A stretch of 64,000 bases of DNA from positions 80,235 through 144,234 of the forward strand of contig CAVVLG010000003.1 of assembly GCA_963749085.1 (NCBI GenBank). Reading direction: 5' to 3'. The position numbers were made by a program, and so were the translations under genes. Below are positions 26,442 to 46,923 of this stretch, in pieces. Below the pieces are notes generated by a model. The model made no database searches. It was not told where the DNA came from and was given only the letters and a program-made list of their open reading frames with translations. Position 1 is the stretch's first letter. Each line of letters opens with the position of its first letter. The DNA is from Candidatus Adlerbacteria bacterium (GTDB lineage Bacteria > Patescibacteriota > Minisyncoccia > Phycocordibacterales > SBAW01).

Positions 26442-26458
26442 GACGCAGAGTCTGGCGA

Positions 26459-26815: not shown

Positions 26816-28147
26816 ATGGACACATCAACAATAACGCTGCGTAAGCCCCAAGCGGGCAATCGGCAAGAAGTTAAGCAGGTGCAAGTGCGGTACTGCCTGT
26901 ATGCAAGAAAGAGTACCGAGTCAGAGGAACGCCAAGTATTAAGCATTGACTCCCAAATCAAGGAGATGATGCAGATGGCGGAGCGGGAGAATCTAGAAAT
27001 CGTCGAGATAAAGCGCGAGAGCCACTCGGCCAAGGAGACCGGCCAGCGGCCCATCTTCAACGAGATAGTAGATAACCTGCGTGCCAATAAATACAACGGT
27101 ATATTAACGTGGGCACCGGATCGCATCAGTAGAAACGCCGGTGACTTAGGTTGCATTGTCGACCTCATGGACGCGGGCAAGCTGCATGAGATACGCACGT
27201 TCAGCCAGCGATTTAGCAATAACCCGAATGAAAAGTTCCTCCTAACAATTCTGGGTGGTCAGGCAAAACTTGAAAACGATAACCGAGGCATCAATGTAAA
27301 GCGCGGACTACGCGCTCGCTGCGAGATGGGCCTGTGGCCCGGGTACCCGCCGCTAGGTTACCTTAACCAAAAGCGCATGGATAAGAAATGCCAGCTCATC
27401 GTGGACCCCTTGCGTGCGCCCGTGGTAAAGCAGATATTCGAAAAGGTGGCACATGAGAAGTGGAGTGGCAGACAGGTATACAACTGGCTCAAGTTCAAGC
27501 TCAACTTCTACACGCGCGGAAACAAGCCGCTCACACTCTCGGGTGTGTATCGTATCCTCGATAATCGGTTCTACTACGGGCTCTTCGAGTACCCAAGAAA
27601 AAGCGACAACTGGTACCAGGGGCAACATACGCCGCTAATCAATCAGGAATTATGGGAGAAGGCGCAGGCGCAGCTGACGCGGGACAACATTGTCAGAGAG
27701 AACAAGGAATTCTCCTTCACCAAGCTATTCACGTGCGGGTATTGCGGAAGTGGTATCAGCGCCGAAGAGAAGTGGAAGCCACTCAAGGACGGTACCTCGG
27801 CGCACTACATCTACTATGGCTGCACGCGTGCCAAGGATCGGAACTGCAAAAACAAGTACATACGAGAGGAGGAGTTGATTGAGGAGCTGCTGAAAATCCT
27901 CGATCAAATCAACCTCAATGAGTTGGGTGTTCGCCACAAGATGGAGGACGAGATACGCCGGTTCAACAAGCTGCAGAAAATCGTGAGCGGGACGTCAGCC
28001 ACCACGTTAGTCGAGGACGACGACATCAACATACGCCGCTACGCCAAATACCTGCTCAAGGAAGGGAGCGTTTCTGACAAGCGGGAGCTCTTGGCGAACA
28101 TGCGAAGTAGATTGCTATATAAGGATAAAACGATTACGTTCGCCTAA
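26816..28147 (+). CDS. large serine recombinase (copy 1)
   Basis: Resolvase catalytic N-domain ('YARKSTESEERQVLSIDSQ', catalytic Ser context), recombinase domain and a C-terminal Zn ribbon 'CGYCGS...YYGCTRAKDRNCKNKY'; 443 aa. Confidence 0.85.
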   Translation: MDTSTITLRKPQAGNRQEVKQVQVRYCLYARKSTESEERQVLSIDSQIKEMMQMAERENLEIVEIKRESHSAKETGQRPIFNEIVDNLRANKYNGILTWAPDRISRNAGDLGCIVDLMDAGKLHEIRTFSQRFSNNPNEKFLLTILGGQAKLENDNRGINVKRGLRARCEMGLWPGYPPLGYLNQKRMDKKCQLIVDPLRAPVVKQIFEKVAHEKWSGRQVYNWLKFKLNFYTRGNKPLTLSGVYRILDNRFYYGLFEYPRKSDNWYQGQHTPLINQELWEKAQAQLTRDNIVRENKEFSFTKLFTCGYCGSGISAEEKWKPLKDGTSAHYIYYGCTRAKDRNCKNKYIREEELIEELLKILDQINLNELGVRHKMEDEIRRFNKLQKIVSGTSATTLVEDDDINIRRYAKYLLKEGSVSDKRELLANMRSRLLYKDKTITFA

Positions 28148-28259
28148 CGAAAATGCGGCCACCATGCCGCTCTTTTCGTTCAACTTTTTGTGCTGAGCAT
28201 TGCGGGTCGCACTGACACATCGACATTGCGGGAACACGCCGATACAAAGTTGTCAATGC

Positions 28260-28345
28260 GGAGAGGGTGAGATTCGAACTCACGGTAGGGTTTCCCCCAC
28301 GCCGCATTTCGAGTGCGGTGCCTTCGACCACTCAGCCACCTCTCC
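28260..28345 (-). tRNA. tRNA-Ser (anticodon CGA)
   Basis: Class II tRNA fold by hand: acceptor GGAGAGG/CCTCTCC, anticodon loop CUCGAAA, long variable arm, T-arm GAGTTCGAATCTC; 3' end faces the recombinase gene. Confidence 0.75.
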
Positions 28346-28428
28346 GTTAACCTCAGCAAAATAACATTATTGTACGATTTCAGCAAAACCGCTGACAAAA
28401 AGAGCTTTTTTTGGTATCGTTTTTTGAC

Positions 28429-28501
28429 GCGCGGTTAGCTCAGTTGGTAGAGCATCCCCTTGACGTGGGGAGGGTCGCAGGTTCGAGTCCTGCACCGCGC
28501 A
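28429..28501 (+). tRNA. tRNA-Val (anticodon GAC)
   Basis: Acceptor GCGCGGT/ACCGCGC, D-arm TAGCTCAGTTGGTAGAGCA, anticodon loop TTGACGT, T-arm GCAGGTTCGAGTCCTGC. Confidence 0.8.
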
Positions 28502-28504
28502 CTA

Positions 28505-29557
28505 ATGAAAATCTTGGCAATAGAAACATCGTGCGACGAGACTGGTATCGCGATAGTCGAAGGAGAAAAAACTTCTAAAGGTTTTGTCTTCAAAACACTC
28601 GACGCGACATTACTCTCGCAAGCACAGCTCCACGCTGCCTTCGGCGGCGTCTATCCCAATCTCGCCAAACGCGAACACGAAAAGAATCTGCCGGTACTTT
28701 TTGAAAAATTCGAGAATGAAAAAGTAGATGCGTTGGCGGTAACTGTTGGCCCGGGACTTGAGCCAGCGCTCTGGACCGGTATTACTTATGCACAAAAACT
28801 AGCAGAAGAAAGTCGATTTCCTCTGTTGTCGGTAAATCACATGGAAGGGCATCTTATTTCCTCACTAGTGCAAAACGGGAGACTGGAAAATGTCGAAATG
28901 TCAGTGCTTGCTCTCCTCATCTCCGGAGGTCATACCGAGTTCGTGCTCATGCGGGAATGGTTTCAATATCAAATAATCGGCGAAACGCTCGATGACGCCG
29001 TGGGCGAAGCGTTTGATAAAGTTGCGCGCATGCTCGACCTTCCCTACCCCGGGGGACCTGAAATAAGTAAACTTGCGAGTGCTGCGCGGGAGGAAAACCT
29101 TTCATCGGAAATAACCTTGCCCCGACCTATGCTCGCACATAAAAATTGTGACGTGTCTTTTTCAGGACTGAAAACCGCCGCATTGTATGCCCTGCGCGAG
29201 AAAAGTCTAAACGAGGATGGCAAGAAAGCGTTTGCACGCGAGTTTGAAGACGCGGTTGTCGACGTGTTCGTCGCAAAAACGCGCCGCGCACTTCAGGAGA
29301 CCGCCGCTAAAACGTTCGTAATCGGCGGCGGTGTCGCGGCCAATCGCTATATCCGCGAGCGGCTGGAGCAATTAGTGCTTGAGGAATTCCCTGACACTGA
29401 ACTGCGCCTCCCGGAACTTTCCATAACCGGCGACAATGCGGTAATGATAGCTGAAGTTGCGCTCGCACATCTTCTCTCAGGCGACTGGAAGCTGGAGCAC
29501 AAAGATTTTCAGGAAATCCGAGCGGTCGGCAATCTCTCGATTTCGACCTTAAAATAA
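28505..29557 (+). CDS. tsaD: tRNA N6-threonylcarbamoyladenosine synthase
   Basis: 'MKILAIETSCDETGIAIV' Kae1/TsaD N-terminus and 'IGGGVAANRYIRERL' motif; start placed at the Met directly after tRNA-Val. Confidence 0.88.
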   Translation: MKILAIETSCDETGIAIVEGEKTSKGFVFKTLDATLLSQAQLHAAFGGVYPNLAKREHEKNLPVLFEKFENEKVDALAVTVGPGLEPALWTGITYAQKLAEESRFPLLSVNHMEGHLISSLVQNGRLENVEMSVLALLISGGHTEFVLMREWFQYQIIGETLDDAVGEAFDKVARMLDLPYPGGPEISKLASAAREENLSSEITLPRPMLAHKNCDVSFSGLKTAALYALREKSLNEDGKKAFAREFEDAVVDVFVAKTRRALQETAAKTFVIGGGVAANRYIRERLEQLVLEEFPDTELRLPELSITGDNAVMIAEVALAHLLSGDWKLEHKDFQEIRAVGNLSISTLK

Positions 29558-29571
29558 GGTACGATTCGAAA

Positions 29572-31689: not shown

Positions 31690-31704
31690 CGTTATACTGA
31701 ACAT

Positions 31705-32421
31705 ATGTTCCTTTCGCCGACGACGTTCATCGCGTTTTTAAGCGGGATCCTGCCGGCTCTTCTGTGGCTGAGCTTCTGGCTTCTTGAGGACCGCTGCCAG
31801 CCGGAACCGAAACGTTACATATTTTACGCGTTCGTGGCGGGTATGTTTTCCGTGCTGCCCGTCCTTTTTATCGAGCAATGGACCATTCCGCTCGTTGACC
31901 CGGCTTTTCTTATAAGCGGGATTGCCACTCCCGCTCTCCTCATAGCATGGGCTTCCACGGAGGAGCTCTTTAAATTCGGCGCTGCCTACATCACGGGACT
32001 GCGCTCCTGGGTGTTCGATGAGCCGCTGGACGCTGTTATTTATATGGTGACGGCTGCGCTTGGGTTCTCCTCCATAGAAAACGCGCTTTTTTTGTGGGGA
32101 GCCCTCATGCACGGGGACGTGCTCCATACCATCCTCACCGGTGACCTTCGTTTTATCGGCGCAACCCTCCTCCATACGCTTTCCTCCTCGACCATAGGCG
32201 TGGCGCTTGCAATGTCGTTTTATAAAAGCGCCGCGATGCGGCGACTATACGCCGTATGCGGAGTTGTCCTCGCAATTGCCTTGCACACCTTGTTCAATTT
32301 TTTTATACTGGGTCAAGGCGGCAATGCCACGTTTGTAGTGTTTATGTTCATTTGGATCGGCATCGTCATAATACTGCTCTTCGTGGAGCACGTGAAAATA
32401 CCTGAGAAGGATTATTGCTAG
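31705..32421 (+). CDS. PrsW-family intramembrane protease-like protein
   Basis: Polytopic membrane protein with 'EELFKFGAAY' (EExxK) and 'HTLFNFF' (FxxxN/H) motifs. Confidence 0.55.
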   Translation: MFLSPTTFIAFLSGILPALLWLSFWLLEDRCQPEPKRYIFYAFVAGMFSVLPVLFIEQWTIPLVDPAFLISGIATPALLIAWASTEELFKFGAAYITGLRSWVFDEPLDAVIYMVTAALGFSSIENALFLWGALMHGDVLHTILTGDLRFIGATLLHTLSSSTIGVALAMSFYKSAAMRRLYAVCGVVLAIALHTLFNFFILGQGGNATFVVFMFIWIGIVIILLFVEHVKIPEKDYC

Positions 32422-32444
32422 CTTGTTAGTCAGATTTCATTTAC

Positions 32445-33012: not shown

Positions 33013-33085
33013 GCTTGGGTAGCTCAGTTGGTAGAGCATCTCCCTGAAGAGGAGGGGGTCGCCGGTTCGAGCCCGGCCCCAAGCA
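33013..33085 (+). tRNA. tRNA-Phe (anticodon GAA)
   Basis: Acceptor GCTTGGG/CCCAAGC, D-arm TAGCTCAGTTGGTAGAGCA, anticodon loop CTGAAGA, T-arm GCCGGTTCGAGCCCGGC. Confidence 0.85.
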
Positions 33086-33095
33086 CACCGTCTAG

Positions 33096-33332
33096 CTAGT
33101 GCGATGTGGTCGTGCTTTGTTGATTTAGGAGATCACCAAAAAAGTTTGATATTTGGCTTTCATACGTCTGAGCCTGCTTCTGATCGGTCTGCAAATTACT
33201 GTACGCTTGTTCGATTTTCAGCAGATATGGCTGGTAATAATAGTAGGCGACACCTGAGGCCGCGATAATAAGAAGCCACCACAGAACCATAAAGAAGCGC
33301 CCCCACGCCGCTCCGCGGCGCACCTTATGCAC
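33096..33332 (-). CDS. small membrane protein (start trimmed to an internal Met)
   Basis: 'MVHKVRRGAAWGRFFMVLWWLLIIAASGVAYYYYQ' one TM; the longer ORF-track N-terminus is translated from the 68-bp repeat and is probably artefactual. Confidence 0.25.
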   Translation of the reverse strand: MHKVRRGAAWGRFFMVLWWLLIIAASGVAYYYYQPYLLKIEQAYSNLQTDQKQAQTYESQISNFFGDLLNQQSTTTSH

Positions 33333-33440
33333 CATGCGATTGGTATCTTCTGATAAAGCAATGTTCCGACGAACAAGTTCTTTTAATTCATCTATTTGCG
33401 GATCCACAAAAAAAGTATAGCACGCTCTCTTTGTGCCCCC

Positions 33441-33508
33441 GGGCGATACCGTACTGACTTCGATGGGGGCCGGTATCGGTTCCCTGCGCCACAGCGCTGT
33501 GCCCCCGG
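33441..33508 (+). repeat. 68-bp direct repeat, copy A (followed by a 22-bp partial second unit)
   Basis: gggcgataccgtactgacttcgatgggggccggtatcggttccctgcgccacagcgctgtgcccccgg is identical to 46984..47051; it contains an 8-bp IR (cgataccg/cggtatcg) and the 12-bp palindrome cacagcgctgtg. Confidence 0.85.
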
Positions 33509-33788
33509 GCGATACCGTACCCCATTCGGTAAGCACCCCAAGGGTTCTTTGATGTACATATAGTATGCGATGGCGAAGGGGGCCGGAATGCCTCAGTTGC
33601 GGGAGATTTTGAAGATTTTTGGGGCGATTCGATGAGCCGAGAGGAGGGGCGGTACCGTACCAGATGAAATGCCTAAAAATGCCTAAAAATTGGATGGTTT
33701 GTGCTTGGGGAGCAGAAATTTTAGGCTTTTGCCGTTCGAGCGATTTTACCCGGAATGGGACACGGAACGGCGTATCAAATGTGTAATT

Positions 33789-34301
33789 TCAGCCACTTGT
33801 ATCCCTACCCTTGGTATCAAGCAGCTGTTTGAATGTGGCATCCTTCACACGCCACAGATAGAAGGTCTTGCGGGTGATGTGAGAGTACTGGCAGGCCTCG
33901 GTTACTTGCATACCCGCCTTCTCGAATGAGAGCAGAAAGGAGAGCTTTTTGATGAGGGTGCGGAGTTGTGGACCTCTCAGTTTTGCCATGCGCTCAAGCC
34001 GTGCCTTGTTGGCCTGCTCCTGCCATTCCGCACGGTACTTATACTTGCCATACATAGGAGGAATAGAGAAATAGTTGGCAATCCAGTGCGTGGCTGACGG
34101 CATGGACCAGTTAAGACCTATAGCTTCTGCAGGTGATACAGGACCGTTGGAATCCCCATAATACAGATTACCCGATTGCTGTTGTTGGCGTAGAGTGGTA
34201 TTGGAGCCGGCGGGAGAGAGAGGAGCGTTGGAGTCGGCGTAGTAGAGATTGCCGGATTGTTGCTGGCGTATATGGGTGTTGGAGCCGGAGGCGGTTCTCA
34301 T
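33789..34301 (-). CDS. HTH-domain protein (transposase/terminase-small-subunit N-terminal-like), possibly a fragment
   Basis: C-terminal 'LRTLIKKLSFLLSFEKAGMQVTEACQYSHITRKTFYLWRVKDATFKQLLD' HTH; N-terminal half is Gln-rich with a 21-aa internal duplication; the true start may be the internal 'MAKLRG'. Confidence 0.3.
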   Translation of the reverse strand: MRTASGSNTHIRQQQSGNLYYADSNAPLSPAGSNTTLRQQQQSGNLYYGDSNGPVSPAEAIGLNWSMPSATHWIANYFSIPPMYGKYKYRAEWQEQANKARLERMAKLRGPQLRTLIKKLSFLLSFEKAGMQVTEACQYSHITRKTFYLWRVKDATFKQLLDTKGRDTSG

Positions 34302-34684: not shown

Positions 34685-35458
34685 CTACTTAATCACGCTC
34701 GGTGTCGACAGACTCGGCTGGGTATACAAATTTGCATTGTATGTATTGATCGCCTTTACAGCCGCGGCGAACCCAGTATCGCTAAGATTAGCACCTGAAG
34801 TATTAGCATAACTGATAACCGCATTCGAGATCTGACTTATATTAGTACCTCCCGAAGAAGATTGAACACCAAATGACTCGTTCGCTAGCATAGTTGGACC
34901 AAAGTATGCGGGCGTTTTATAAACAACTGATTCAGAAGCACCCATATCGAAACCGAATGTGGTAGTTTCTGTCCATGGAGTTGGCGGTCCAGCTTTAGGA
35001 TGTTTCCAGTCAGAGAAATCAAGTTGTGCCTCTGATGAAATTGACTCTCCTATGCCTGGAGTAAGGTCAGCTGAAGGTGAAGTGTATAAACCTGATGCGT
35101 CGAGGGAACCGCTCTTACTATACGTGCCCTGATAATTAACACCTAAAGCGAACCCAGCCCATGGGCCACCTTCAAATTGAATGCCCCAAGGATCGGTATC
35201 GACATTTGCACCTGCTACCACACCAAACCCTGCTCCGAGACTAACCGTCCCTCCGTATATATCTTTTCCTAAGGGGTCACTATTGGTAATGGGGTTATCT
35301 CGTCCATAGCTATAAGAGTTGAGTTGTTGTGGGTCCATTAATAGCTGGCCTTGCTGCTGTTGCGTCAATTGTCGAAGCTGAGTCGGATTTCCTACCGACA
35401 AACCTGCATGGATACGTCGGAAAAAGGATATTGTGCACCTTGATTCTGATCCGCGCAC
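34685..35458 (-). CDS. orphan Rhs C-terminal toxin cassette (core tail + DPxGL + variable CT domain)
   Basis: 'LLMDPQQLNSYSYGRDNPITNSDPLGKD' matches the Rhs core-end / aspartyl autoproteolysis motif and the main rhs tip 'LLADPQQLNAYSYSRDNPTTTSDPQGLG'; followed by a distinct but related Gly/Ala-rich CT. Confidence 0.7.
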   Translation of the reverse strand: MRGSESRCTISFFRRIHAGLSVGNPTQLRQLTQQQQGQLLMDPQQLNSYSYGRDNPITNSDPLGKDIYGGTVSLGAGFGVVAGANVDTDPWGIQFEGGPWAGFALGVNYQGTYSKSGSLDASGLYTSPSADLTPGIGESISSEAQLDFSDWKHPKAGPPTPWTETTTFGFDMGASESVVYKTPAYFGPTMLANESFGVQSSSGGTNISQISNAVISYANTSGANLSDTGFAAAVKAINTYNANLYTQPSLSTPSVIK

Positions 35459-36565: not shown

Positions 36566-39500
36566 CTATTTGGTGCCAGGTGTCGATGCACTCATTTGAG
36601 AGGAAAATAGGTTTGAATTGTAGGTGTTGATGGCTTTTACAGCCGCAGCAAAACTAGGATCAGCCAAGTTAGCACCAGTGGTATTCGCATAATTGATAAC
36701 TGCGCCAGAAAGTTGGCTAATATTACTACCTCCAGAACCAGAGGAAGGATTGGGGGAAGAACCTACGAAGCTTTGGAATTGGGAAATGACGTTACCAATA
36801 AAGCCAAGACTAAACGGTGACGCTTTGTATAGAACGGCATCGGTAGCCCCGGCATAGGCACCAAATGCGGGCACAACGTTGCCGACCGGTAATGCCGATT
36901 TAAGTTTAAATTTGCCGTCTTGCCAAGTCAGAGGCGCTTCGGACGAATAGCTTGCACCCACACCTGCGGCAGCTCCTGCTGAGACTTGGAAGTAAAGGCC
37001 CGCAGGATCCAATGACCCATTGGGGTCATACGTGCCTGAAACACGAGCACCTATGCCAGGCCCTATTGTGGGACCGTAACTGAATTGTCCTAGCCAAGAA
37101 TTTGTATCAATATCAAAGTTCGCTACCCCTCCGCCAAATATATACCCGGCATTTATGCTTCCCTCAAGAACACCGAGCCCTTGCGGATCACTAGTCGTTG
37201 TAGGATTATCCCTACTATAACTATACGCATTCAGCTGTTGTGGATCTGCTAGTAACTGATATTGGCTCTGGTCTAGAAGCTGCCCAACTTGATTTGGATT
37301 GCCGAGAGACAAAAATACAGGATCTTCCGAAAGGAACTGCCCCCTACTCCCGTCATAGTACCTCGCGTTCAGATAATCGAGACCAGTGTCATTGTCATAC
37401 ACCTGACCCACATACTTGCGCAGTGATGAGTAGCCCGCTAATTGGTCGTGGTTGCTAATGGATCCGTAGGGGGTGTAGTCGGTGACCTCCTGCACGTGGT
37501 TGTTAGAATCTGCGGTGACAGAGGCGGAGTTGAGTGTGTCGACGTAGTTGTAGTTGATAATCCCGCTTCCCGTAGCGCCGGTTATGTCAGCAACATCTTG
37601 ATTATTAAGGAAGATGTGCTTGGTGGGGAGCATTGAGACACTGTCGGTATTATAGTAGTCGTTGGGATAATAATAGGTGGTGCTTGCGGTGCCCACTCTT
37701 ACCCGATTGTCATTCTCATCGTAAGTGTAGGTGTCAGTGCCTGCCGTCGTGGTTGAGATGCTGAGGCGGTTGCGCCAATCCCAAGCACCTTGGAAGCCCG
37801 AGAGTCCTTGAGTGACGTTACCATTATTATCATACGTAATGGTGGTCTGGCCTACCTGCGTAGGGGCGTCTGGGTTGGCATAGCTAGAGCCTGTATTGCC
37901 TTGGTAGAGGTAGGTAGTAGTGGCGAATGTCCCGCCGAGTGTGGAGGAGGCGTCGGTGAGTACGTTACCTAAGGCGTCATAGGTCCACTGCTCGATTGTG
38001 TTGCGGCCAGCATTGGGCGCACCAGAGGAGATGTCAGGAGTAGTAGATGCCTGTATGAGTCTATTAAGACCATCGTAGGTGTAATCGACCACTTTGGCAG
38101 TTTTAGTGAAGGACGCATCGACAAGGTATGTGATATTTCCATTGGCATCATAAGTATAGGAGAGATCCTGTACACGGTTTCCCGGAGTCATGAAATAGTC
38201 GTTACCGTTGGACCAGGGAGACGGATTGTTATTTTGATCCCAGACTCTAATGCGCCAGAAATATTTGTTGGCATCGGTTCCGTTCGAAGGCAGCGTAGGT
38301 CCTGCATACGTTGATGTCGCCGTTCTTTGACCATTTTGCGTTTGCGGCGACAGAGTTACTTCGCCCGAATCCCATAAAGGAGTTGCCCAACTTCCTCCTC
38401 TTTGGATTACCTGAATTTCATAGGCTGAAGCTGTTGATGTGCCGGACGAATCATAGATGCCATTGAAGTACGGAGGAGGTGCCGTAACTTTGGTGTTTTG
38501 CTCCGCAAAGAAGTGGAAATTGTCGAACCACACATGACCGGTCGTTGTCCCTAGATCGAAATCGAAACGTCCATCTACATCTCCCGCATTTGGCGTAAGC
38601 GTAATTACGTAGTGATTCCAATTGGGATATAGATTGAAAGGGGTGAAGGGTGTAAATTGATTGTTAGGAGAGTGATTTTGATCGAGAACAACATCCGCAC
38701 TCCTTTGAGAGGTTGATTTGGCATCAAAGGCTAGTATGTACGTGGTACCAGTCGCCAGTGCCTGCTGTTGCCAAAACTGCACGTACCAATTTGTACTGGT
38801 AGCCTGGAGAACATTTATATTCGCCGAACAGCTCCCGTTGGTCGATGTAGTGCAATCCGTGCTTTCAGTCGCCTCCGAAGAGCCGTTATCTGTCCAGAAA
38901 CCATAGCCATAGTTGTTTCCTGTGGGATCGGAGATATTTTCAAACGATGGATTACGCACTGTAGAAAGACTATCAGGAATAAGTTCGACATCATCCAGCC
39001 AATACGTTGCACTATTAACCGCCCCGAGCGAAAATATCAGTCGTGAGTTTAGGTCAGTCGTCGTCGCGGTCGAGCTAAAGTAGTACGAGTACTGTTTCCA
39101 GTTTGGCGTGACGGTAGGGTTCACGTCGAGCCCGTAGCTTAGATATTGCCCGCTATTTTGCTGTAACGTTGCTTCGATAGTCGTCGTGGCCGATGCTTTT
39201 GCGCTGAATTCCAAAGTGTAATTGACGTTGGGATCGACGCGAAGCAGCTGTAGGAGTTGTGGTAAATAGTTGACACTTGTCGAAGCAACAACAATTTTAT
39301 CTGAGCAGGCACCAGTGAAGGCAGTTGTGCAGTCGATAGAACTGCTTGAAATACTTGAACCTTCATTAAACACCCAACTTGTGGAAGAGGCGTACTCAAA
39401 TGAGTCGTCGTAGGTTACCGAATTTGAGAACCAATAACCATCGGTATTGAGATTTGTTGAAGCAAATGGAGGAGTGGGGCCTGTTGAGGATGCGGCGTTG

Positions 39501-42500
39501 GCAAAAGTTTGCGTGATAAAGCCCATGGCATTGCCTACCGCAGTGCCCCAAGCTCCCGAATCTGGGAGGAGTGTCACTTTGTGCGTTAATCGATACAGGT
39601 GGTTCGCATCATAGGTATCGGTAGTAGTAGCACCACTGCCCCACAAAATGGTAGCCTCCTGGCCGAGCGGAGAGTAAAAAACATTTGAGACAACCGTACG
39701 CCATGGCGATGACGTTGCCTCGCGCTGCTGTATTTCTTGAACCAACCCTTGAGGACCTAGCGTGTATAACACCTCGGACTGGTCGGGATATACGATGTCG
39801 GTCTGATCGCCCTGTCGGTCGTAGGAATATGACGTGGTGTATGTTTGTCCCGCAATCTGTTTTACTTCTTGTGCAGGCTTCCCCAGAGGATTGTAGCTGT
39901 CGGTCGTTACAATAGTTGCATTCGCAGTTGTGGTTGCGATACAAATCAAGCCTATACCGTTTGAACAAGAATCATACTTATACGTTACCGAGTTTGCGCT
40001 GGCGGGCATGTAAGTAATTACGATGATACCCTGACCTCCCGTGCCCGCAGCACCGCCTACGTGCGTTGCCCCGCCTCCGCCTCCTCCACCTCCGCCTCCG
40101 CCGTACGTGCCGCCGTTTCCACCCGCTGAGCCGACTGCATCTCCTGTCGCGGACGCACCGCCGCCTCCGCCTCCGCTCGAACCATGAGACGCATCAAATT
40201 CTGTTCCGATGCCGCCAGCACACCCGACTGTTGCTGGAGTATTGTTTTGCCCCCCACCTCCACCACCGCCATTGGTACCGGCGGTGCATCCGGAACCACT
40301 GTCACCATTGCCGTGTCCTGTTCCGCTTGAATTGTTTCCGCCATTTGCTCCGTTACCTGTGCCTCCAGTACCATTCCCCGCCGTACCGCCGCCATTACCT
40401 CCTCCACCCGGCCCGGCCCCGCCAGTAGTATTTGCGCCTCCTTGCGCTCCCGCTCCGTTGGACCCTCCAGCACCGCCTCCCGCAGTTGGAGCCGCATGAG
40501 CGGCATACGTACCACCGGCTCCCCCCGCATATGTTGTCGAGCCTATAGACTGCGAAGTTAGACCTCCTACGCCAGAGGAGGTAGTACCGTTCCCCGCACG
40601 CCCCCATGAGCATGACAAAGAAGCGGTCGAGGAGGCGGTGCCGTTGAAATACGTTTCTCGAGCTTGCCCGACGGCAGTTGTCACTGACGTGGTTGTAGCA
40701 TCAGCTCCAATTGCGTAGGTTATGTTCCCTCCTGGCGTGAGAGATAGATTAGTGATCTTTGCATAGGCACCTCCACCTCCTGCGGCTCCACCCGCGCCTC
40801 CGTCGGCGACGCCTGCCGCGCCTTCGCCTCCTGATCCAACGCACTGGATAGTGTTGTTCGACGAGTTCCAGTTTGAGGGTACGTTCCAGGTCTGATTGCC
40901 TTTACCCGGATTAACGGTGAGGAAGATGACGGTGGCACCGCTTCCTCCGGTTCCTTCGGTCAACTCGCGATTGAGCGCATCATAAGTGTAGGTAGTTGTT
41001 TTGCCGTTGGGGTCAACTTTTTGCGTCACGTTGCCCGCAAGGTCATAGGTATAGGTCGTCGTGCCAAAAGTAGTGTCCGTCGCGACGTGAAGGTCCTGTG
41101 CCGTGAGTTGGCGATTGAGACCGTCATACGTGAAATTGCGGATATTGCCGCTGGCATCCGTCACTTCCGTGAGGTTATTTTTCAGATCGTATGCATATGT
41201 GGTCGTAGCGGACGTGGTGGTGGTGCTATGTTCAACCACATTGACCAGATTGCCGAACGCGTCATTCCAAAAATCCTTAAGATTGCCGTTAGGGTCCGTG
41301 ACCATGGTATGCCACGGATTATACACATAGGTTGTCGAACCGACCGCGTTATCGACGGAAGCGATTCTCTCCAATGGATCGTAGGTATAGCTGGTAAAGA
41401 GCGCGGTCGTTGTCGTAGGTGCCGCCCAAGACGTGCTTGAGGCAAAATATTGGAGGGATTCATCCACCAGCAAGCCGGAAGCACCGTACACATCATCTTT
41501 CACGGCATAGGTATTGGTTGGAGCCGCCTCCGTGCGCGTTTGTATGGTGCGGCCGAGACCATCAAAGTATTGGTATGAGACCGTGCTGGTTGCGGAGTTG
41601 AGATAGGAGGTCGTCGTGGTGTAAGTCGGGAAACCCGTGTCGGTATATGCGATAGTTGTATTCAAGTCAAGTGTGCTGGGCGTATTGAGGTCAGGCTGCA
41701 ACTTCTCACTAACGCGCCCGACCGGATCGTACACGGTGACATGCGTGAGCCCGTTGGGATCGGTCGTGGTCGCCACATTGCCAGTCCCATAATCGTACAT
41801 ATAACTAGTGGATTGGTTGAGCGCATTGGTCGAAGTGGCAGGGTAATAATTGAAACTGTCGAATGAATAGCTGGTTTGATTACCGTTAGGGTCAGTGCTG
41901 CTCGCCACAAGGCCGTAGGAGTTATATGACTTCGTCTTGCTCGCATAGGTACTTCCTGTAATCCAATCCTCCTCCTTAGTCTGATTTCCGAGTGATACAG
42001 ACCCCAGCGGTAGGCCGTCGTAGTAATACTGGGTTTCTGAAAGCTGAGTGCTACTCGCATTGGTAAGTATAATGTCGTCTTGCAGATCCAGCGTCGAGCT
42101 TGCATTGGTCGCATAGGTAATATTTTTGATGCTCTCATCATTGCTGCTGATAGTGGTGTACGTGCCATTGGAGCTGCCGTTTACTTGACCCAGATCCTCA
42201 ACCTGCGCGAGATCCCCTGTAGTGGTGGAGTACGTGTATTGAATGGCATGATCCATGTGATTGCTACCGCTGGGATCAAAATCCTGCGTCATTTGGTTAG
42301 CGAGAAAGACGAAATACCCGGTAGACGCGGTGGTTGAGGGAGTGGTGGTGGACGTAGTCCAGTCGTAGAAGGTGCGCTTCAGCAGCGTCCCGCTGGGAGT
42401 TTCGGTGTCTTCACGGAACACACGCCCAATTTGGGCATAGCTATCGCTCTGCTCGCCGTCGCCGGTCGTTACGCCGTTGCCTTGGTTGTAATAGGTGACC

Positions 42501-45172
42501 GTGGTGAAGTCGGGATGTGTCTCCTTTATAGTGTAGAAGCTTGCGAACTTCCTGTCCTGCGGAGCGTTCGCGTTGAAGTACAGAACGCCGCCATTGTAGG
42601 AATAATCGACTTCGGTGGTATTGTCGTCGTTATCACTGGTGAGGGTTTTTGACACCAATAGAAGCGAGAGTGGCAAATTGGGATTATTGCTCGTCTGGGG
42701 CGACGGAACATATGAGATCTGCTCGTTACCACCTTTGGGATAATTAATTTGCGTCAGTACGTCCTGGCGCGAAGCGTTGTTTATTTCATCGACATTGTCC
42801 GGCAACCCATCGCCGTTCCAATCGACATATTCGTTATCTATCTCAGTATCATACTGATTGTATTGAACGATGTAGGAAGGAAGCTGTATTGAACTCGTGG
42901 CCCACCCCGAGCCGGTATTAAGCCACACAATATCGATCCCATTCGAGACCGGCGCATTGCCGTGCACTCCACCGACAATCGGACTGTAATATGATTCGAC
43001 GAGATCCGGCAATCCATCGCCAGTGAGGTCTATAAACCGAAGACCGCGATCAAAGTATTGATGGCTGCCGCTGTTGTAATAATAGGTGGACGTGGCGATG
43101 TTCCAAGGCGAATTGCACGATCCCGCCGGGATCCATCCGGTCCCAGTATTCATACAGACATACGTATTGTTAGCATCCGAATACACCCAATCATCAAGGC
43201 CGTCGCCGTTGATATCAACGAGCTGGGAGTCCGTAACCGTACCACCAGCCGCGTCTGGAAACGGTTCCACTGCCGTAAAATCACCACTGGGGGTCCATGC
43301 GCTGCCGTTGCCCATATAGCTTGTACTCGCCGTAATACCTGAACCTGAAGGCAATGCTTCGACATAACCAGGGTATCCGTTCCCATCGAGATTTCCAAAC
43401 ATACCCGATGTGTAGGTTATGCCCGAGCCGGAATTGTAAAGGCCGAAGGGAGGGATGACCCCGTTTAACGTCGAAGAGGCGAGCACCGTAAAGGTGTAAT
43501 CGCCGTTAGTTCCTGACGTATTTTCGTATAGTGCCGCGCCATCCAGACCCTGATCATTATGCACGACATCCGCATAGCCGTCGCCGCTGACATCAACGAA
43601 TCTCGTGCCGCTTTCAACCGGAGTCTGCGTGCTACCAAGACAGGCCCACGTGTACGAAGGAGGCTCGCTGACGGCCGTGTTGTCTATATATAACTGCCCA
43701 GGACCTCCGCAGGAAGCATAGCCGGATATTGCCGTATCGTTTACGCCATCGCCATGCGATTGGGCTGCGATGTTAGATTGGTTTGCAGCATATCCAAAAT
43801 TATTTTGAAACGTCCATGTCACTGATGTGCTGGCATACTGGAACGTCGTCGCCGGAAGAGTCAGTTGGTTACCGTTGGCATCCTCGCCAGTTTCTTGGAC
43901 GCCAGAGAGAAGCGACCGATACCCATTATTTCCCGTCGTATATGAAAGAACATATTTGCGCACTAAATTGCCATTCACCTTTGCGTCAATCTCTGTGATG
44001 CGATAATTGGTTGTCACTTCAAAGGTCGGCCGGTAATCGATGAACGAGTCGGGACGGGTTGAAGTAGCAAACGTTATACTCATCACGCCCGTGGTTGTTC
44101 CGTTTCCGGTATACGTTATCTGGAAAGGATAAATCTGATCGTCGTTCTTGGCGTAGGTGTATGAGATGTCATTGCCGTTCGTATCCACAACCTGTTCAAG
44201 CATCCAGGTATATATCTGCGTTGAGCTGGCGGCATCAAACTGCTGTGCTTGGGTCGTGGTGCCGTATTCGTAGCGGGTGCCATCCTTGTCATAGGCGGTC
44301 CACGTGTCGTTTGAGAATACGTATTTGACGAAGCTGCCGTCATTGACACGCGCGATATACGTGCTCGAGTTGGAGGATGTGGCTAAAAGGGTTAATTCTC
44401 CGTCTTTAGAGGAGGTAAAATAGTTGTCCGTATAGAGCCTATCAGTACCCGTTTTATTAAGCCTCTGTATGTAGGGGATGGAGAGCGACCAGCCGTATCC
44501 AACCAGACTGTTGTCTTGCAGGTTTTGGCTGTTGTAATTGAGGGAGAAATCGGGCTGTAAGCCGTTGCGGCCGGGCGGAATATCGAGCGGTATGTTTTCC
44601 GTCAACGCGCCGCTCGTCTTGTCCACTTGAGGAGCAATAGTTTGATATGTGAATAGATATGGATTCGTAACTGTCGGTGGAGAACTACCACCGCTAGGAG
44701 GTGGAGGACCCGGAGGTTGGCTTGCTGGAGTGCTGGGAGTCGTTGGGCTGCTAGGGGCGGGCGTCGTTGGGTTACTCGGATTACTACCATTATTCGTATC
44801 ACTGTTATCAGTAGAGCTATTGTCGGTAGGACTTGTATCCACACTGGGCGTCGTGGCGTTATCCGCGCTGGGCGTCGCCTGATCGGATGAATCGCTCGGT
44901 TGTTGCGTCGATGCTCCTAATATATCGCCCAGTGGGGTGACTTTCGGCGTATCGGGCGTAGTATTTGCATCTGTCGATTGATCCGAGGACTGTGAAGAAT
45001 CAAAAGTTGCGGAAGCGTCAGTACCTGAGGAGGTGGAGCTCGGGTCCGTTATTGATGTCTGTGCATCCGCTGAAGGAGTGTCAGTCGCGCTCTGGGCAAA
45101 TATAGTGCTCACCGGAGAGAGCAATAAAGTTGCAAGCGTAAAGCCTGCGATAAGTTTTCTCACCGCCCACAT
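36566..45172 (-). CDS. giant Rhs/YD-repeat polymorphic toxin, TcB-TcC-fusion-like (SpvB + FG-GAP propeller + YD shell with Gly-rich insert, 2 CBM4_9-like and an FN3-like module + C-terminal toxin)
   Basis: Signal peptide 'MWAVRKLIAGFTLATLLLSPVSTIFA|QSA'; SpvB-type 'DFSLNYNSQNLQDNSLVGYGWSLSIP'; FG-GAP 'DVSGDGYADVV/DINGDGLDDWV/DLTGDGLPDLV'; many YD repeats (e.g. 'TYTYDLAGNVTQKVDPNGKTTTYTYDALNRE'); Rhs core end 'ARYYDGSRGQFLSEDP...NAYSYSRDNPTTTSDPQGL'. Confidence 0.85.
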   Translation of the reverse strand: MWAVRKLIAGFTLATLLLSPVSTIFAQSATDTPSADAQTSITDPSSTSSGTDASATFDSSQSSDQSTDANTTPDTPKVTPLGDILGASTQQPSDSSDQATPSADNATTPSVDTSPTDNSSTDNSDTNNGSNPSNPTTPAPSSPTTPSTPASQPPGPPPPSGGSSPPTVTNPYLFTYQTIAPQVDKTSGALTENIPLDIPPGRNGLQPDFSLNYNSQNLQDNSLVGYGWSLSIPYIQRLNKTGTDRLYTDNYFTSSKDGELTLLATSSNSSTYIARVNDGSFVKYVFSNDTWTAYDKDGTRYEYGTTTQAQQFDAASSTQIYTWMLEQVVDTNGNDISYTYAKNDDQIYPFQITYTGNGTTTGVMSITFATSTRPDSFIDYRPTFEVTTNYRITEIDAKVNGNLVRKYVLSYTTGNNGYRSLLSGVQETGEDANGNQLTLPATTFQYASTSVTWTFQNNFGYAANQSNIAAQSHGDGVNDTAISGYASCGGPGQLYIDNTAVSEPPSYTWACLGSTQTPVESGTRFVDVSGDGYADVVHNDQGLDGAALYENTSGTNGDYTFTVLASSTLNGVIPPFGLYNSGSGITYTSGMFGNLDGNGYPGYVEALPSGSGITASTSYMGNGSAWTPSGDFTAVEPFPDAAGGTVTDSQLVDINGDGLDDWVYSDANNTYVCMNTGTGWIPAGSCNSPWNIATSTYYYNSGSHQYFDRGLRFIDLTGDGLPDLVESYYSPIVGGVHGNAPVSNGIDIVWLNTGSGWATSSIQLPSYIVQYNQYDTEIDNEYVDWNGDGLPDNVDEINNASRQDVLTQINYPKGGNEQISYVPSPQTSNNPNLPLSLLLVSKTLTSDNDDNTTEVDYSYNGGVLYFNANAPQDRKFASFYTIKETHPDFTTVTYYNQGNGVTTGDGEQSDSYAQIGRVFREDTETPSGTLLKRTFYDWTTSTTTPSTTASTGYFVFLANQMTQDFDPSGSNHMDHAIQYTYSTTTGDLAQVEDLGQVNGSSNGTYTTISSNDESIKNITYATNASSTLDLQDDIILTNASSTQLSETQYYYDGLPLGSVSLGNQTKEEDWITGSTYASKTKSYNSYGLVASSTDPNGNQTSYSFDSFNYYPATSTNALNQSTSYMYDYGTGNVATTTDPNGLTHVTVYDPVGRVSEKLQPDLNTPSTLDLNTTIAYTDTGFPTYTTTTSYLNSATSTVSYQYFDGLGRTIQTRTEAAPTNTYAVKDDVYGASGLLVDESLQYFASSTSWAAPTTTTALFTSYTYDPLERIASVDNAVGSTTYVYNPWHTMVTDPNGNLKDFWNDAFGNLVNVVEHSTTTTSATTTYAYDLKNNLTEVTDASGNIRNFTYDGLNRQLTAQDLHVATDTTFGTTTYTYDLAGNVTQKVDPNGKTTTYTYDALNRELTEGTGGSGATVIFLTVNPGKGNQTWNVPSNWNSSNNTIQCVGSGGEGAAGVADGGAGGAAGGGGAYAKITNLSLTPGGNITYAIGADATTTSVTTAVGQARETYFNGTASSTASLSCSWGRAGNGTTSSGVGGLTSQSIGSTTYAGGAGGTYAAHAAPTAGGGAGGSNGAGAQGGANTTGGAGPGGGGNGGGTAGNGTGGTGNGANGGNNSSGTGHGNGDSGSGCTAGTNGGGGGGGQNNTPATVGCAGGIGTEFDASHGSSGGGGGGASATGDAVGSAGGNGGTYGGGGGGGGGGGATHVGGAAGTGGQGIIVITYMPASANSVTYKYDSCSNGIGLICIATTTANATIVTTDSYNPLGKPAQEVKQIAGQTYTTSYSYDRQGDQTDIVYPDQSEVLYTLGPQGLVQEIQQREATSSPWRTVVSNVFYSPLGQEATILWGSGATTTDTYDANHLYRLTHKVTLLPDSGAWGTAVGNAMGFITQTFANAASSTGPTPPFASTNLNTDGYWFSNSVTYDDSFEYASSTSWVFNEGSSISSSSIDCTTAFTGACSDKIVVASTSVNYLPQLLQLLRVDPNVNYTLEFSAKASATTTIEATLQQNSGQYLSYGLDVNPTVTPNWKQYSYYFSSTATTTDLNSRLIFSLGAVNSATYWLDDVELIPDSLSTVRNPSFENISDPTGNNYGYGFWTDNGSSEATESTDCTTSTNGSCSANINVLQATSTNWYVQFWQQQALATGTTYILAFDAKSTSQRSADVVLDQNHSPNNQFTPFTPFNLYPNWNHYVITLTPNAGDVDGRFDFDLGTTTGHVWFDNFHFFAEQNTKVTAPPPYFNGIYDSSGTSTASAYEIQVIQRGGSWATPLWDSGEVTLSPQTQNGQRTATSTYAGPTLPSNGTDANKYFWRIRVWDQNNNPSPWSNGNDYFMTPGNRVQDLSYTYDANGNITYLVDASFTKTAKVVDYTYDGLNRLIQASTTPDISSGAPNAGRNTIEQWTYDALGNVLTDASSTLGGTFATTTYLYQGNTGSSYANPDAPTQVGQTTITYDNNGNVTQGLSGFQGAWDWRNRLSISTTTAGTDTYTYDENDNRVRVGTASTTYYYPNDYYNTDSVSMLPTKHIFLNNQDVADITGATGSGIINYNYVDTLNSASVTADSNNHVQEVTDYTPYGSISNHDQLAGYSSLRKYVGQVYDNDTGLDYLNARYYDGSRGQFLSEDPVFLSLGNPNQVGQLLDQSQYQLLADPQQLNAYSYSRDNPTTTSDPQGLGVLEGSINAGYIFGGGVANFDIDTNSWLGQFSYGPTIGPGIGARVSGTYDPNGSLDPAGLYFQVSAGAAAGVGASYSSEAPLTWQDGKFKLKSALPVGNVVPAFGAYAGATDAVLYKASPFSLGFIGNVISQFQSFVGSSPNPSSGSGGSNISQLSGAVINYANTTGANLADPSFAAAVKAINTYNSNLFSSQMSASTPGTK

Positions 45173-45585
45173 TTTTCTTTCCCACAAAAAATGAGGTGCC
45201 CTGCTCATAAAATTTTGCCCTGCCAAAAAACATATACCGGAGACCCAATGGTAACAGGGAAAACGAAACAGCAAGGAAATCTCTCCGGATTTTTATTTCA
45301 CCACTGAACTATTTTCCTGTTATTAAGCCACACATGAGACTAGGTGCGCAAATCTCGGCAAAGCGACATATGAAGTTTTTATGCAAACAAGTTTTCATAT
45401 CTCGGATTTCCGAACAGAGCAAAATAATAGTGCTTGATAATTTTCAAATCTGACGCGTTTATTAAAAAATTATCCACAGATCGCTATTACAAGTTACCAA
45501 CTAGGGGACCGGAATGGGGTCTGGACTCACAGCGGGTGTTGCGTCATTCATTGACCTTGCAGATTAGCAAGTAACCACAAGGTAT

Positions 45586-46923
45586 ATGAATATGACGTTT
45601 GAGGGTACCGCAGGGGTATTAGGGACAAAGCCGGAAATTAAGGAGACAGTGCGGGTGTGCTACTGCCTGTATGCTCGGAAGTCGACCGAACAAGACGAGG
45701 TGCAAGCGCTCTCTATCGAGTCGCAGGTCAAGGAGATGACTGCGCTCGCCACGCGGGACGGCTTGGAGATCGTTGAAATAAAACGGGAGTCGCACTCGGC
45801 GAAGGAGACCAATCAGCGGCCAGTCTTCAACGAGATGCTCGAGGAGATACGAGTGGGTACATATAATGGAATACTGACATGGGCAGCGGATCGCATCAGC
45901 AGAAACGCCGGGGACTTGGGCAAGGTCGTAGACCTCATGGATGCAGGGCTGCTCCATGGCATACAAACGTACAGTCAGAAATTCTCGAATAATCCGAACG
46001 AGAAATTCTTGTTGATGATCCTGTGCAGCCAGGCGAAGCTCGAAAACGACAACAAGCGGATTAACGTAAAGAGGGGCCTGCGCGCTCGGGCGGAGATGGG
46101 TATGCTGCCGGGATGGGCACCCATTGGATATCTCAACGACACGCGCAAGGACCACAGGTGCGAATATCTGTTGGACCCGCTTCGAGCGCCGGTGGTGAGG
46201 ATGATATTCGAGAAGGTTGCCAAAGAACGCTGGAGCGGGCTTAAGATATACCACTGGCTCAAGGAGGATCTAAAATTCACGACCCGCAGCGGTAAGAACC
46301 TCAATATCAGCACCCTCTATGAGATGTTGAAAAATCCCTTCTACTGCGGAGTGTTCGAGTACCCCCGCAAGAGCGGCAATTGGTACGTGGGCAAGCATGA
46401 GCCCCTCATCACAAGAGAGCTGTTTGAGCAGGTGCGGCAGAAAATCGTCGAGGAGACGGAGCCGCGTAAGCGCTCCAACGAATTCGCCTTTGTCCGCATG
46501 ATGACGTGTGGGGACTGCGGCTCCAGCATCACGGCATTCGAGAAGGATAAATTCATCAAGGGAACTGGGGAGACGCGCACGTACCGCTATTATGCGTGCT
46601 GTCGGTCGAAGGACCGCCATTGCAAGAGCCTCTATGTACGCGAGGACGCTATGATGGAGCAGCTCATCGGCATCATCGACGAGGTGGAAATAGACCAGCT
46701 GGGTGCCCGGCATCTTATCGACAGAGAGATTGTTCGCTTCAACAAACTACAGTCGAAGGTACTTGGCAGCAAGGAAAAAGAGAAGGTGCGCGACATAGAC
46801 GTGCGGCGCTACGCGAAGTACCTGCTTGAGGAAGGGACGACTGAAGAGAAGCGCGAGCTGCTCGGACAGCTGCGCGGCAGGATTGTGCTGAAGGATAAAC
46901 AGATATCAATCGCGAAGGCCTAG
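45586..46923 (+). CDS. large serine recombinase (copy 2, paralog of 26816..28147)
   Basis: 445 aa with the same three-domain layout; Zn ribbon 'CGDCGS...YYACCRSKDRHCKSLY'; colinear with copy 1 and judged by eye about 60% identical. Confidence 0.85.
   Translation: MNMTFEGTAGVLGTKPEIKETVRVCYCLYARKSTEQDEVQALSIESQVKEMTALATRDGLEIVEIKRESHSAKETNQRPVFNEMLEEIRVGTYNGILTWAADRISRNAGDLGKVVDLMDAGLLHGIQTYSQKFSNNPNEKFLLMILCSQAKLENDNKRINVKRGLRARAEMGMLPGWAPIGYLNDTRKDHRCEYLLDPLRAPVVRMIFEKVAKERWSGLKIYHWLKEDLKFTTRSGKNLNISTLYEMLKNPFYCGVFEYPRKSGNWYVGKHEPLITRELFEQVRQKIVEETEPRKRSNEFAFVRMMTCGDCGSSITAFEKDKFIKGTGETRTYRYYACCRSKDRHCKSLYVREDAMMEQLIGIIDEVEIDQLGARHLIDREIVRFNKLQSKVLGSKEKEKVRDIDVRRYAKYLLEEGTTEEKRELLGQLRGRIVLKDKQISIAKA

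Follow-up and report, generated by a model that had tools for sequence, protein, structure and literature searches.

In a stretch of 64,000 nucleotides (nt) from contig CAVVLG010000003.1 of Candidatus Adlerbacteria bacterium (the window, taken at its full length), two genes for large serine recombinases (LSRs), here called LSR1 and LSR2, each stand beside a giant gene on the opposite strand. The locus raises the question of what these recombinases act upon: an earlier note on this DNA, made from its letters alone, had proposed a repeated module in which they mobilise or rearrange large surface-protein genes. Our analysis directs attention to a different partner, the tRNA gene on the other side of each LSR, and we hold it likely that LSR1 and LSR2 are the integrases of two separate elements of a single family, which inserts at the 3′ ends of tRNA genes in Patescibacteria (Paceibacteria). 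In mechanism these would be ordinary integrative islands. The observations concern the domain content of the proteins, the repeats, an insertion seen against related genomes, a family-wide association with tRNA genes and a variable cargo; from them we infer catalysis by LSR1 and LSR2, the exact position of the crossover and mobility in the present day.

Two recombinases facing tRNA genes

LSR1 (26816..28147, 443 amino acids (aa)) and LSR2 (45586..46923, 445 aa) are both on the + strand and, as the earlier note had it, are paralogues with a zinc ribbon; its estimate by eye of about 60% identity agrees with BLASTP (252/433 identities, 58%; 76% positives), the alignment being colinear from end to end. 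In both, the Resolvase, Recombinase and Zn_ribbon_recom domains score above the Pfam cut-offs, i.e., a catalytic resolvase domain (PF00239; E=7.5e-19 and 2e-20 in the two window LSRs) together with the C-terminal Recombinase (PF07508) and zinc beta-ribbon (PF13408) domains. Across a 29-sequence family alignment that includes both, the catalytic residues Y29 A30 R31 K32 S33 and the zinc-ribbon cysteines C308, C311, C338 and C346 are invariant, and the best PHROG match of LSR2 is an integrase (E=1.9e-63), with “DNA invertase” as a weaker secondary match. The same three-domain architecture is seen in the large serine integrases of phages and integrative and conjugative elements (ICEs), such as A118/LI Int, SPbeta SprA/YokA, phiC31, Bxb1 and TP901-1, which also share the placement of the integrase gene at the element end, a short common core and a near-palindromic element site. 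The window LSRs are distant from these (E=1.7e-14 for SprA and 8e-7 for A118 Int) and at most 29% identical to the integrases of cultured phages (50,697 records). Judged from sequence, they are bona fide large serine recombinases remote from the studied ones. A protein identical to LSR2 is on record (P0001, a 443-aa form; NCBI, ENA, Logan) on a 305,831-bp contig; an exact look-up of the LSR1 and LSR2 proteins gave no match, probably from a difference in start codon, and tblastn found no third LSR copy or fragment in the window.

The two genes also share their position. The stop codon of LSR2 lies 118 nt from the 3′ end of tRNA-Arg(CCT) (47042..47114, − strand) and that of LSR1 110 nt from the 3′ end of tRNA-Ser(CGA) (28258..28345, − strand), both tRNAs being called by ARAGORN and Rfam and each convergent with its LSR in the same layout. 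At both loci, an integrase gene at an island end is thus next to an intact tRNA gene. The earlier note had seen the tRNA-Ser end, at about 112 bp, and had assigned tRNA-Gly to the second copy, missing the nearer tRNA-Arg.

This layout extends far beyond the window. LSR2 has at least 8000 homologues at E≤1e-20, the best 120 of which are 59–86% identical, and those that are named come from Patescibacteria (Kaiser-, Adler-, Paceibacteria and similar). Among GTDB genomes, scanned at one per species, at least 572 LSR loci were confirmed, 80 of which were retrieved, and IMG/VR adds 68. In 51 of 52 GTDB loci and 18 of 18 IMG/VR loci, the first tRNA downstream is encoded on the other strand and turns its 3′ end towards the LSR, which makes 69 of 70 cases for both sets together (143 related loci, cited below by their L numbers). 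Only 5 loci of the GTDB set have any tRNA within 10 kb upstream, and in nine the gap between LSR and tRNA is 93–122 nt, as in the window. Moreover, the identity of the tRNA tracks the LSR clade: every one of the 40 LSRs with a tRNA-Ser link is nearer LSR1 than LSR2 (mean identity 69.5% vs 56.5%), those linked to Met, Gly and His tRNAs are nearer LSR2, and the Arg-linked ones are split, with 4 of 8 nearer each window LSR (means 57.7% and 57.8%). Because LSR1 and LSR2 are members of different clades with different tRNA targets, they are not a duplication within this genome.

The earlier note had also asked after further paralogues beside giant genes. Related LSRs are plentiful in other genomes and a giant gene adjoins few of them; the recurring unit is LSR plus tRNA, with giants in few of the 143 loci, and not LSR plus giant gene as had been supposed. 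The same counts bear on the proposal that the LSRs work as DNA invertases or drive phase variation by inverting a promoter or a part of the giant gene beside them, which we regard as extremely improbable. A large divergent gene does lie upstream of each LSR, as the note had reported, and shares an intergenic region with it (a Rhs gene at 311 nt from LSR2, an Ig-repeat gene at 691 nt from LSR1); two small palindromic AAATC..GATTT motifs precede LSR2, and “DNA invertase” appears among the PHROG matches. However, no inverted repeat pair was found around 26.1–26.8 kb, 45.26–45.6 kb or the 5′ ends of the giant genes, the C-terminal part of both proteins is of the full integrase type (Recombinase and Zn ribbon), LSR1 has no such motif upstream, and the constant partner across the loci is the tRNA. 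With inverted sites absent, a shufflon was rejected along with the invertase, and the rearranging half of the original proposal is not supported either, no inverted att-like repeats flanking either giant gene or its promoter.

On the 5′ side of the LSRs, the family retains a non-coding leader, kept across proteins of merely 55–60% identity, with the layout AGTTACCAAC ... (GGGACGCT)CTGGACTC - 11 nt - TGCGTCAT (window; L001–L080) and a spacing of 19 nt from CTGGACTC to TGCGTCAT in 59 of 63 members. For LSR2, it occupies 45492..45591 (+ strand), with AGTTACCAAC, CTGGACTC at 45521–45528 and TGCGTCAT at 45540–45547, followed by an inverted repeat around the start codon; for LSR1, it occupies 26720..26815 (+ strand), with CTGGACTC at 26754–26761, GGCGTCAT at 26773–26780 and a hairpin CCTTGTAT..ATACAAGG. 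Throughout the family, inverted repeats that vary in sequence come next, either around the LSR start codon or ahead of it. The leader may act as a promoter/operator or form a translational hairpin. No Rfam family matched the leader or the 3′ module regions, and RNAalifold predicted no consensus structure from 18 leader sequences, which leaves the start-codon hairpins seen in single sequences unproven as conserved RNA. The direct repeats AATCTC..GGATTT at 45275..45585, put forward earlier as possible binding sites, are present as two exact copies (45279 and 45399); they make a weak case, since at least two copies arise in 1 of 100 whole-window shuffles and none is found upstream of LSR1.

The island at tRNA-Arg(CCT) and its cargo

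A perfect 68-nt direct repeat (33441–33508 = 46984–47051), which had escaped the earlier note, brackets 13.5 kb (about 33.5–47.05 kb), here called island 2. Its right copy, the tRNA-proximal junction (46984..47051), consists of the 57 nt between LSR2 and the tRNA, hereafter the element-end module, plus the last 10–11 nt of tRNA-Arg; the left copy accordingly constitutes a distal direct repeat that contains a tRNA 3′ segment, a feature found at island 2 alone in the window. LSR2 is the sole recombinase within the island and sits at its tRNA-proximal end. Three relatives, the closest available (L081, L082 and L084), whose valyl-tRNA synthetases (ValRS) are 76% identical, have neither LSR nor Rhs gene at this site and share the order TsaD-ValRS-PrsW-HSP20-tRNAPhe-(about 2–3.3 kb of variable DNA)-tRNAArg(CCT)-glutaredoxin (Grx)-tRNAGly-...-LepA-MurJ-TPR, with the genes flanking the island retained (a small membrane protein at 33096..33440, 53% identical, and the glutaredoxin, 75%). 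GC content is 0.44–0.51 over much of the island vs about 0.52 outside it. We read island 2 as a complete, bounded insertion at tRNA-Arg(CCT) that is missing at the same site in the relatives. In one of these (L082), a 680-aa reverse transcriptase of the group II intron-like kind (14545–16587) occupies the tRNA-Phe/tRNA-Arg interval in place of island 2.

The fine structure of the ends can be read in some detail. At the right junction, a 12-nt palindrome CACAGCGCTGTG (47033–47044) is flanked at a distance by the arms CGGTATCG and CGATACCG, and the reconstructed element site is near-palindromic (CGGTATCG - 11 nt - CACAGC|GCTGTG - 8 nt - CGATACCG), its centre falling 3–4 nt outside the tRNA end. 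The left junction (33432..33520) comprises the chromosomal flank, TGTGCCCCC, the perfect 68-nt copy and a further GGGCGATACCGTAC; on the + strand, the order is flank - TGTGCCCCC(GG) - 57-nt module - TGTGCCCCCGG - GCGATACCGTAC - island. Since module, TGTGCCCCCGG and GCGATACCGTAC stand in that order, the left end keeps a full attP-like junction (module, core and island-left arm) along with a second core by the flank. The module is homologous to the interval between LSR and tRNA-Met in L155/L156, whose LSR is 83% identical, and to the modules of L012, and therefore belongs to the element and not to the chromosome; in L155, a left repeat was looked for and not found. Additional module copies in degenerate form, as we read them, lie at 33509..33665 (partial matches at 33507–33520 and 33644–33660) and point to remnants of earlier or tandem integrations. 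Most simply, elements would have integrated repeatedly or in tandem, and DNA between the 14-nt GGGCGATACCGTAC copies, present near both ends of each element, would then have been deleted.

From established serine-integrase chemistry, we envisage that an LSR dimer on the element site (attP) would pair with a dimer on attB, which would largely be the 3′ portion of the tRNA gene, and that strands would be cut and exchanged at a short shared core, the proposed attP being …CCACAGCGC-TGTGCCCCCGG-GCGATACCGTACCCC… and the proposed attB …GCACGCTCTCTT-TGTGCCCCCGG-CAGGAATTGCACCC…. The circular element would thereby become linear in the chromosome, with its integrase gene about 110–120 nt from the tRNA; it would supply a replacement for the displaced tRNA segment, which would in turn mark the far end. 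The Rhs gene, an orphan toxin module and small open reading frames (ORFs) would ride on island 2 as passive cargo. The tRNA-Arg(CCT) itself has a non-canonical T-loop, TGCAATT, with G at the near-universal U55, and the lowest Rfam tRNA score among the six window tRNAs (48.8 bits). Relatives without island 2 have a canonical tRNA-Arg T-loop (TTCGATT or TTCAATT), and the tRNA-Met adjoining the 83%-identical LSR of L155/L156 has TGCAAGT. The odd T-loop may have come with the element, in a tRNA 3′ portion that it supplies, or else the tRNA may be impaired. The intact LSR2 and the perfect repeats argue for recent activity.

Several points weigh against the integration of two such elements. Island 2 repeats just 10–11 nt of its tRNA, vs about 20 nt in the islands at tRNA-Ser, such that a T-loop and a 3′-end crossover are both candidates; the perfect 68-nt repeat exceeds what a serine integrase needs, and part of it must have another origin, e.g., a tandem copy of which some was later deleted. 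Neither an empty site nor a circle junction of this genome was found, and two exact patterns (for the empty site and for a single repeat unit) gave 0 matches in the JGI metagenomes, a collection from which the species is apparently absent. No recombination directionality factor was identified, no left end of the element at LSR1 is detectable within the 26.8 kb available, and the ORFs of the related loci are simple longest-ORF calls.

The extent of the mobile unit is a further matter for debate. We think it distinctly unlikely that mobility is confined to the roughly 1.65 kb made up of leader, LSR gene and 3′ module, a unit comparable to an insertion sequence (IS) that would land beside tRNAs, with the neighbouring genes being the contents of a tRNA-linked hot-spot. 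That conservation among loci is limited to the span from about 110 nt upstream of the start codon through the tRNA would agree with this, as would the fact that everything further upstream differs even at LSR identities of 83–86%, and the variability of the DNA between tRNA-Phe and tRNA-Arg in relatives that have no LSR. Yet the end repeats lie far from the tRNA and no tRNA fragment adjoins the leader: displaced tRNA 3′ fragments are found 9–15 kb upstream and define islands of 12.0 kb in L033 (a 20-nt fragment), 14.7 kb in L026, 12.1 kb in L039 and 9.3 kb in L015, compared to the 13.5 kb of the window. Counted from the tRNA 3′ end, Ser-type islands repeat about 20 nt of the tRNA, and the identity breaks off in or at the T-loop: the limit is GATTCG in L033 and L015 and the shorter GGATTC or GGATT in L039 and L026.

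Integration of a long, cargo-bearing island is hence the reading we retain for LSR2, and its principal cargo is the giant Rhs-family polymorphic toxin gene (36566..45274, − strand; 2902 aa), whose product combines SpvB, FG-GAP_3, DUF6443 and Ig_Rha78A_N domains with 5 stretches of RHS_repeat. Further along, an orphan C-terminal (toxin) module is encoded at 34685..35458 (− strand), as a 257-aa ORF with 48% identity to the ~245 aa at the end of the Rhs protein; the alignment starts at the core-end motif ...YSY.RDNP.T.SDP.G, the duplication is also seen as a DNA repeat, and the module matches the C-terminus of the giant in L008 too. An RHS shell, a variable tip after the core-end motif and an orphan module are thus all present, and the diversity of the tip follows the usual orphan-module arrangement. 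In its SpvB, FG-GAP and RHS repeats, variable C-terminus and downstream orphan module, the locus resembles other Rhs/YD polymorphic toxin loci; unlike the usual ones, it rides a tRNA-linked LSR island and recurs with related LSRs in four other Patescibacteria genomes. There (L002, L008, L016 and L072; five loci with the window), Rhs/SpvB/FG-GAP giants of 2032–2908 aa lie just upstream of the LSR and are 31–37% identical to the window protein over ~1200–1350 aa; the island in L072 is likewise at tRNA-Arg(CCT), with a downstream gene order that is similar when judged by ORF sizes alone. As it lies in a repeat-bounded 13.5 kb of lower GC that is missing in relatives with conserved flanks, we consider the Rhs gene acquired cargo of the tRNA-Arg island. 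The mobilising half of the original proposal consequently stands for copy 2, and the four other genomes support it. Within the Rhs gene, GC rises to 0.61 at 40000–40900, vs about 0.50, over degenerate CCTCCGCCTCC repeats that encode a Gly-rich segment and are partly complementary to the repeats of the Ig gene.

The remaining contents of island 2 are modest: a 170-aa helix-turn-helix (HTH) protein (33789..34301, − strand; weak HTH_23 match, weak PHROG match to the terminase small subunit, E=1.5e-4), possibly a regulator or a terminase-small-subunit-like relic, and a few small ORFs that had no database matches. Pfam and PHROG searches of the window islands gave no phage terminase, capsid, portal, tail or other structural or replication gene beyond this weak match. 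That both loci are decayed prophages, with the LSRs as relics of phage integrases and the islands now immobile, strikes us as unlikely. Besides the HTH protein, it could draw on the family members in IMG/VR, which adjoin terminase large subunits (18 of 104 ORFs) and, commonly, ParB-methyltransferases, on a co-directional ORF of about 500–520 aa directly upstream of the LSR in about ten of 65 GTDB loci (a terminase only by guess from its size), and on the missing far end of the element at LSR1 with an IS nearby. On the other hand, neither window island has a recognisable phage structural or replication gene, LSR2 and the 68-nt repeats are intact and perfect, respectively, and many related islands have defence or toxin cargo only. 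The terminases and ParB-methyltransferases indicate, therefore, that the family also serves prophages.

The locus at tRNA-Ser(CGA)

At LSR1, the tRNA side is well preserved. The right-end module of element 1 (28148..28257) contains a terminator hairpin, GGGTCGCAC...CCGATACAAAGTTGTCAA, abuts the 3′ end of tRNA-Ser and is weakly similar to the LSR2 module; the same layout is near-identical in L027, L075, L015, L037, L045 and L043. For a copy of the tRNA-Ser 3′ end upstream in the window, blastn-short, k-mers of at least 8 nt, matching with up to 3 mismatches and a 20-mer with up to 5 edits gave nothing convincing, and island 1 has no distal repeat of the kind that bounds island 2. The relatives L081, L082 and L084 are no guide to the limits of element 1: the tRNA-Glu/Ser/Val block differs in arrangement from one to the next, and synteny upstream of tRNA-Ser is not conserved in them. 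We conclude that element 1, at tRNA-Ser(CGA), is a truncated or rearranged family member with intact integrase, leader and tRNA-side end, whose far end has been lost or rearranged. Between L081 and L082, the tRNA-Glu/Ser/Val block is inverted. The single tRNAs Ser-CGA, Phe and Gly-CCC (28258–28502, 33013–33086 and 47447–47518) are reversed relative to L081, L082 and L084 within an otherwise shared gene order, and these differences in orientation suggest small inversions around tRNA genes in the lineage. In L082, a LAGLIDADG ORF (6383–7117) overlaps the tRNA-Ser(CGA) region.

The giant neighbour of LSR1 is an Ig-repeat/peptidoglycan (PG)-binding surface protein gene (21448..26124, − strand), a single gene of about 1275 aa with an N-terminal signal or transmembrane segment, two PG_binding_1 domains and about ten Ig-like repeats. 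The repeats are encoded by eight DNA copies in a 237-nt register (22170–24482), four of which are 100% identical over 300 nt, indicating a very recent expansion or homogenisation; GC is 0.61 in this region vs about 0.52 elsewhere. The gene is split by an IS5-family insertion sequence (24700..25554, 855 bp) that has 27-nt terminal inverted repeats of 89% complementarity and DUF4096 and DDE_Tnp_1 ORFs in two frames, and which sits in the Thr/Pro-rich linker; hence, the Ig gene is a pseudogene. The earlier note had pictured the Ig adhesin as cargo of LSR1: the gene is there, in disrupted form, and nothing marks it as cargo. A PG-binding/Ig homologue (51% identical, N-terminal part) in L051 lies beyond tRNA-Ser(CGA) and tRNA-Glu, on the non-island side, and for this reason the Ig gene looks more like a chromosomal neighbour of the tRNA block. 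Weakly similar PG-binding proteins adjoin the LSRs in L072 and L011; the domain is common. The Ig gene is probably a chromosomal neighbour and not cargo of element 1, its pairing with LSR1 being unproven and probably incidental. Between the two, small HTH ORFs of 33 and 62 aa (26340..26647, − strand) have no Pfam or PHROG match; the 62-aa one shares 41% identity with an ORF that precedes the LSR of L003, and they are possible relics of a regulator or excisionase.

Further out, a type IV pilus cluster on the − strand (13141–21317) lies directly left of the Ig gene (pilin with an N-methylation motif, PilC/T2SSF, PilT- and PilB-type ATPases, PilO, PilN and PilM), and a 466-aa MBG/RTX-repeat protein is encoded at 11582–12982. 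Just past tRNA-Gly, at 47519–48046, are two co-directional ORFs of 82 and 89 aa, the first with a faint YbeY-like match; they are likely a toxin–antitoxin pair, as the second resembles RelE/ParE toxins (PHROG E=8e-11).

The recombinase family across Patescibacteria

Seen across the family, the cargo is highly variable. When 65 loci are compared by the nearest ORF upstream of the LSR that reaches 150 aa, restriction-modification DNA methyltransferases come out as the most frequent family (N6_Mtase 12/65, Eco57I 12/65, HsdM_N 9/65 and N6_N4_Mtase 3/65, which overlap, several domains occurring per protein), and Type I, ISP and MmeI-type systems are seen in individual related loci. Other cargo includes reverse transcriptases, a KAP NTPase, nucleases and transposases, and ORFs of at least 1500 aa are found upstream of the LSR in six loci and downstream in none. 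LSRs that are 83–86% identical to LSR2 have wholly different cargo: a P-type ATPase with thioredoxin/DsbD, MmeI with a reverse transcriptase, or sigma factors with helicases. The best homologues of LSR2 are 86% identical and those of ValRS 77%; the closer relationship of the LSRs is therefore consistent with horizontal transfer.

Tandem arrays with remnants of module plus tRNA occur in L006, L012, L046 and L025. In loci where the tRNA is 0.4–9 kb away, a tRNA fragment at ~110 nt past the LSR stop was seen in L006 only; tandem arrays as a universal cause of distant tRNAs were rejected on this ground, and in most such loci the LSR is accordingly internal by a few genes. Contigs with close LSR homologues (L154, L155 and L156; L087, L091, L092, L116 and L123 from IMG/VR) often end 50–170 nt past the LSR stop or at the tRNA, as would be expected if assemblies break, or proviruses are trimmed, at the attachment repeat; populations heterogeneous for the presence of the island may also contribute. 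Five viral-flagged IMG/VR contigs (L093/L094, L097/L117, L113/L121, L126/L130 and L150/L151) have two co-oriented LSR paralogues 16–37 kb apart; the spacing in the window is 18.8 kb, and the pair L092/L115 of IMG/VR is divergent instead. Such paired LSRs may reflect several islands lined up at adjacent tRNAs.

Integration at tRNA genes is textbook behaviour of tyrosine integrases, and to our knowledge the known large serine integrases of phages and ICEs target protein-coding genes or intergenic sites. Unlike these, the LSRs described here sit at tRNA 3′ ends. In this respect they resemble Islander-type islands and P4-like tyrosine integrases, which share the abutment on the tRNA 3′ end, the integrase gene by the tRNA, the displaced tRNA fragment as distal repeat, tandem arrays and accessory cargo; the recombinase here is of the unrelated serine family. 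LSR-driven cargo islands without phage genes are familiar from the SCCmec elements with their Ccr recombinases, which target a conserved housekeeping gene at its 3′ end, have short direct repeats and are often tandem or composite; they differ in the identity of this target (rlmH/orfX), in the action of Ccr proteins in pairs and in their host, Staphylococcus. Mageeney et al. 2020 (PMC7192596) described serine integrases as “not known for targeting tRNA genes”, predicted 14 such cases among 297, and regarded the use of tRNA genes by serine integrases as previously unreported and in need of proof; the phiRSM-type serine recombinase is cited there as a site-specific integrase. The phiRSM-type enzymes, from Ralstonia filamentous phages, are small and resolvase-like, without the Recombinase and Zn-ribbon domains. 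Work by Askora and colleagues from 2011 is said to place their target in a tRNA-Ser gene. Among 937 tRNA-linked elements, the tycheposons of Prochlorococcus include 27 with a large serine recombinase (10.1101/2020.12.28.424599). These too are cargo elements at tRNA genes, flanked by partial tRNAs, in which repeated integrations push older elements inward; they differ in belonging to another phylum, in using mostly tyrosine recombinases and in often having replication genes, which are not seen in either window island. In the literature searched, we found no description of this LSR clade of Patescibacteria.

This clade of tRNA-associated LSRs is Patescibacteria-wide, very large and barely described. 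We are evenly divided over a more ambitious reading, namely that it is a single, rapidly exchanged clade that has taken the niche at tRNA genes otherwise held by tyrosine integrases, with sub-clades for Ser, Arg, Met, Gln and other tRNAs, a crossover in or near the T-arm or 3′ end, an element-supplied tRNA 3′ end, and prophages and phage-free islands serving as a main vehicle for restriction-modification systems and Rhs toxins in these reduced genomes of episymbionts. In that case, the replacement provided by the sub-clade of LSR2 may include the non-canonical T-loop (TGCAA vs TTCGA/TTCAA).

For the window itself, the meaning is modest: a Rhs gene gained as cargo by horizontal transfer, and an Ig gene, probably chromosomal, that an IS has disrupted. 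The interest lies in the wider pattern, a tRNA-tied LSR clade with clade-specific targets and a cargo of defence and toxin genes, in which one clade shows near-perfectly consistent use of tRNA genes over thousands of homologues and the many loci in species-representative genomes. This would provide a simple marker for mobile islands and prophages in Patescibacteria, whose mobile elements are poorly charted, and, of interest for genome engineering, a naturally occurring set of related serine integrases, each with its own short and conserved target in a tRNA. Defence systems and Rhs contact toxins would also have a path between these episymbionts.

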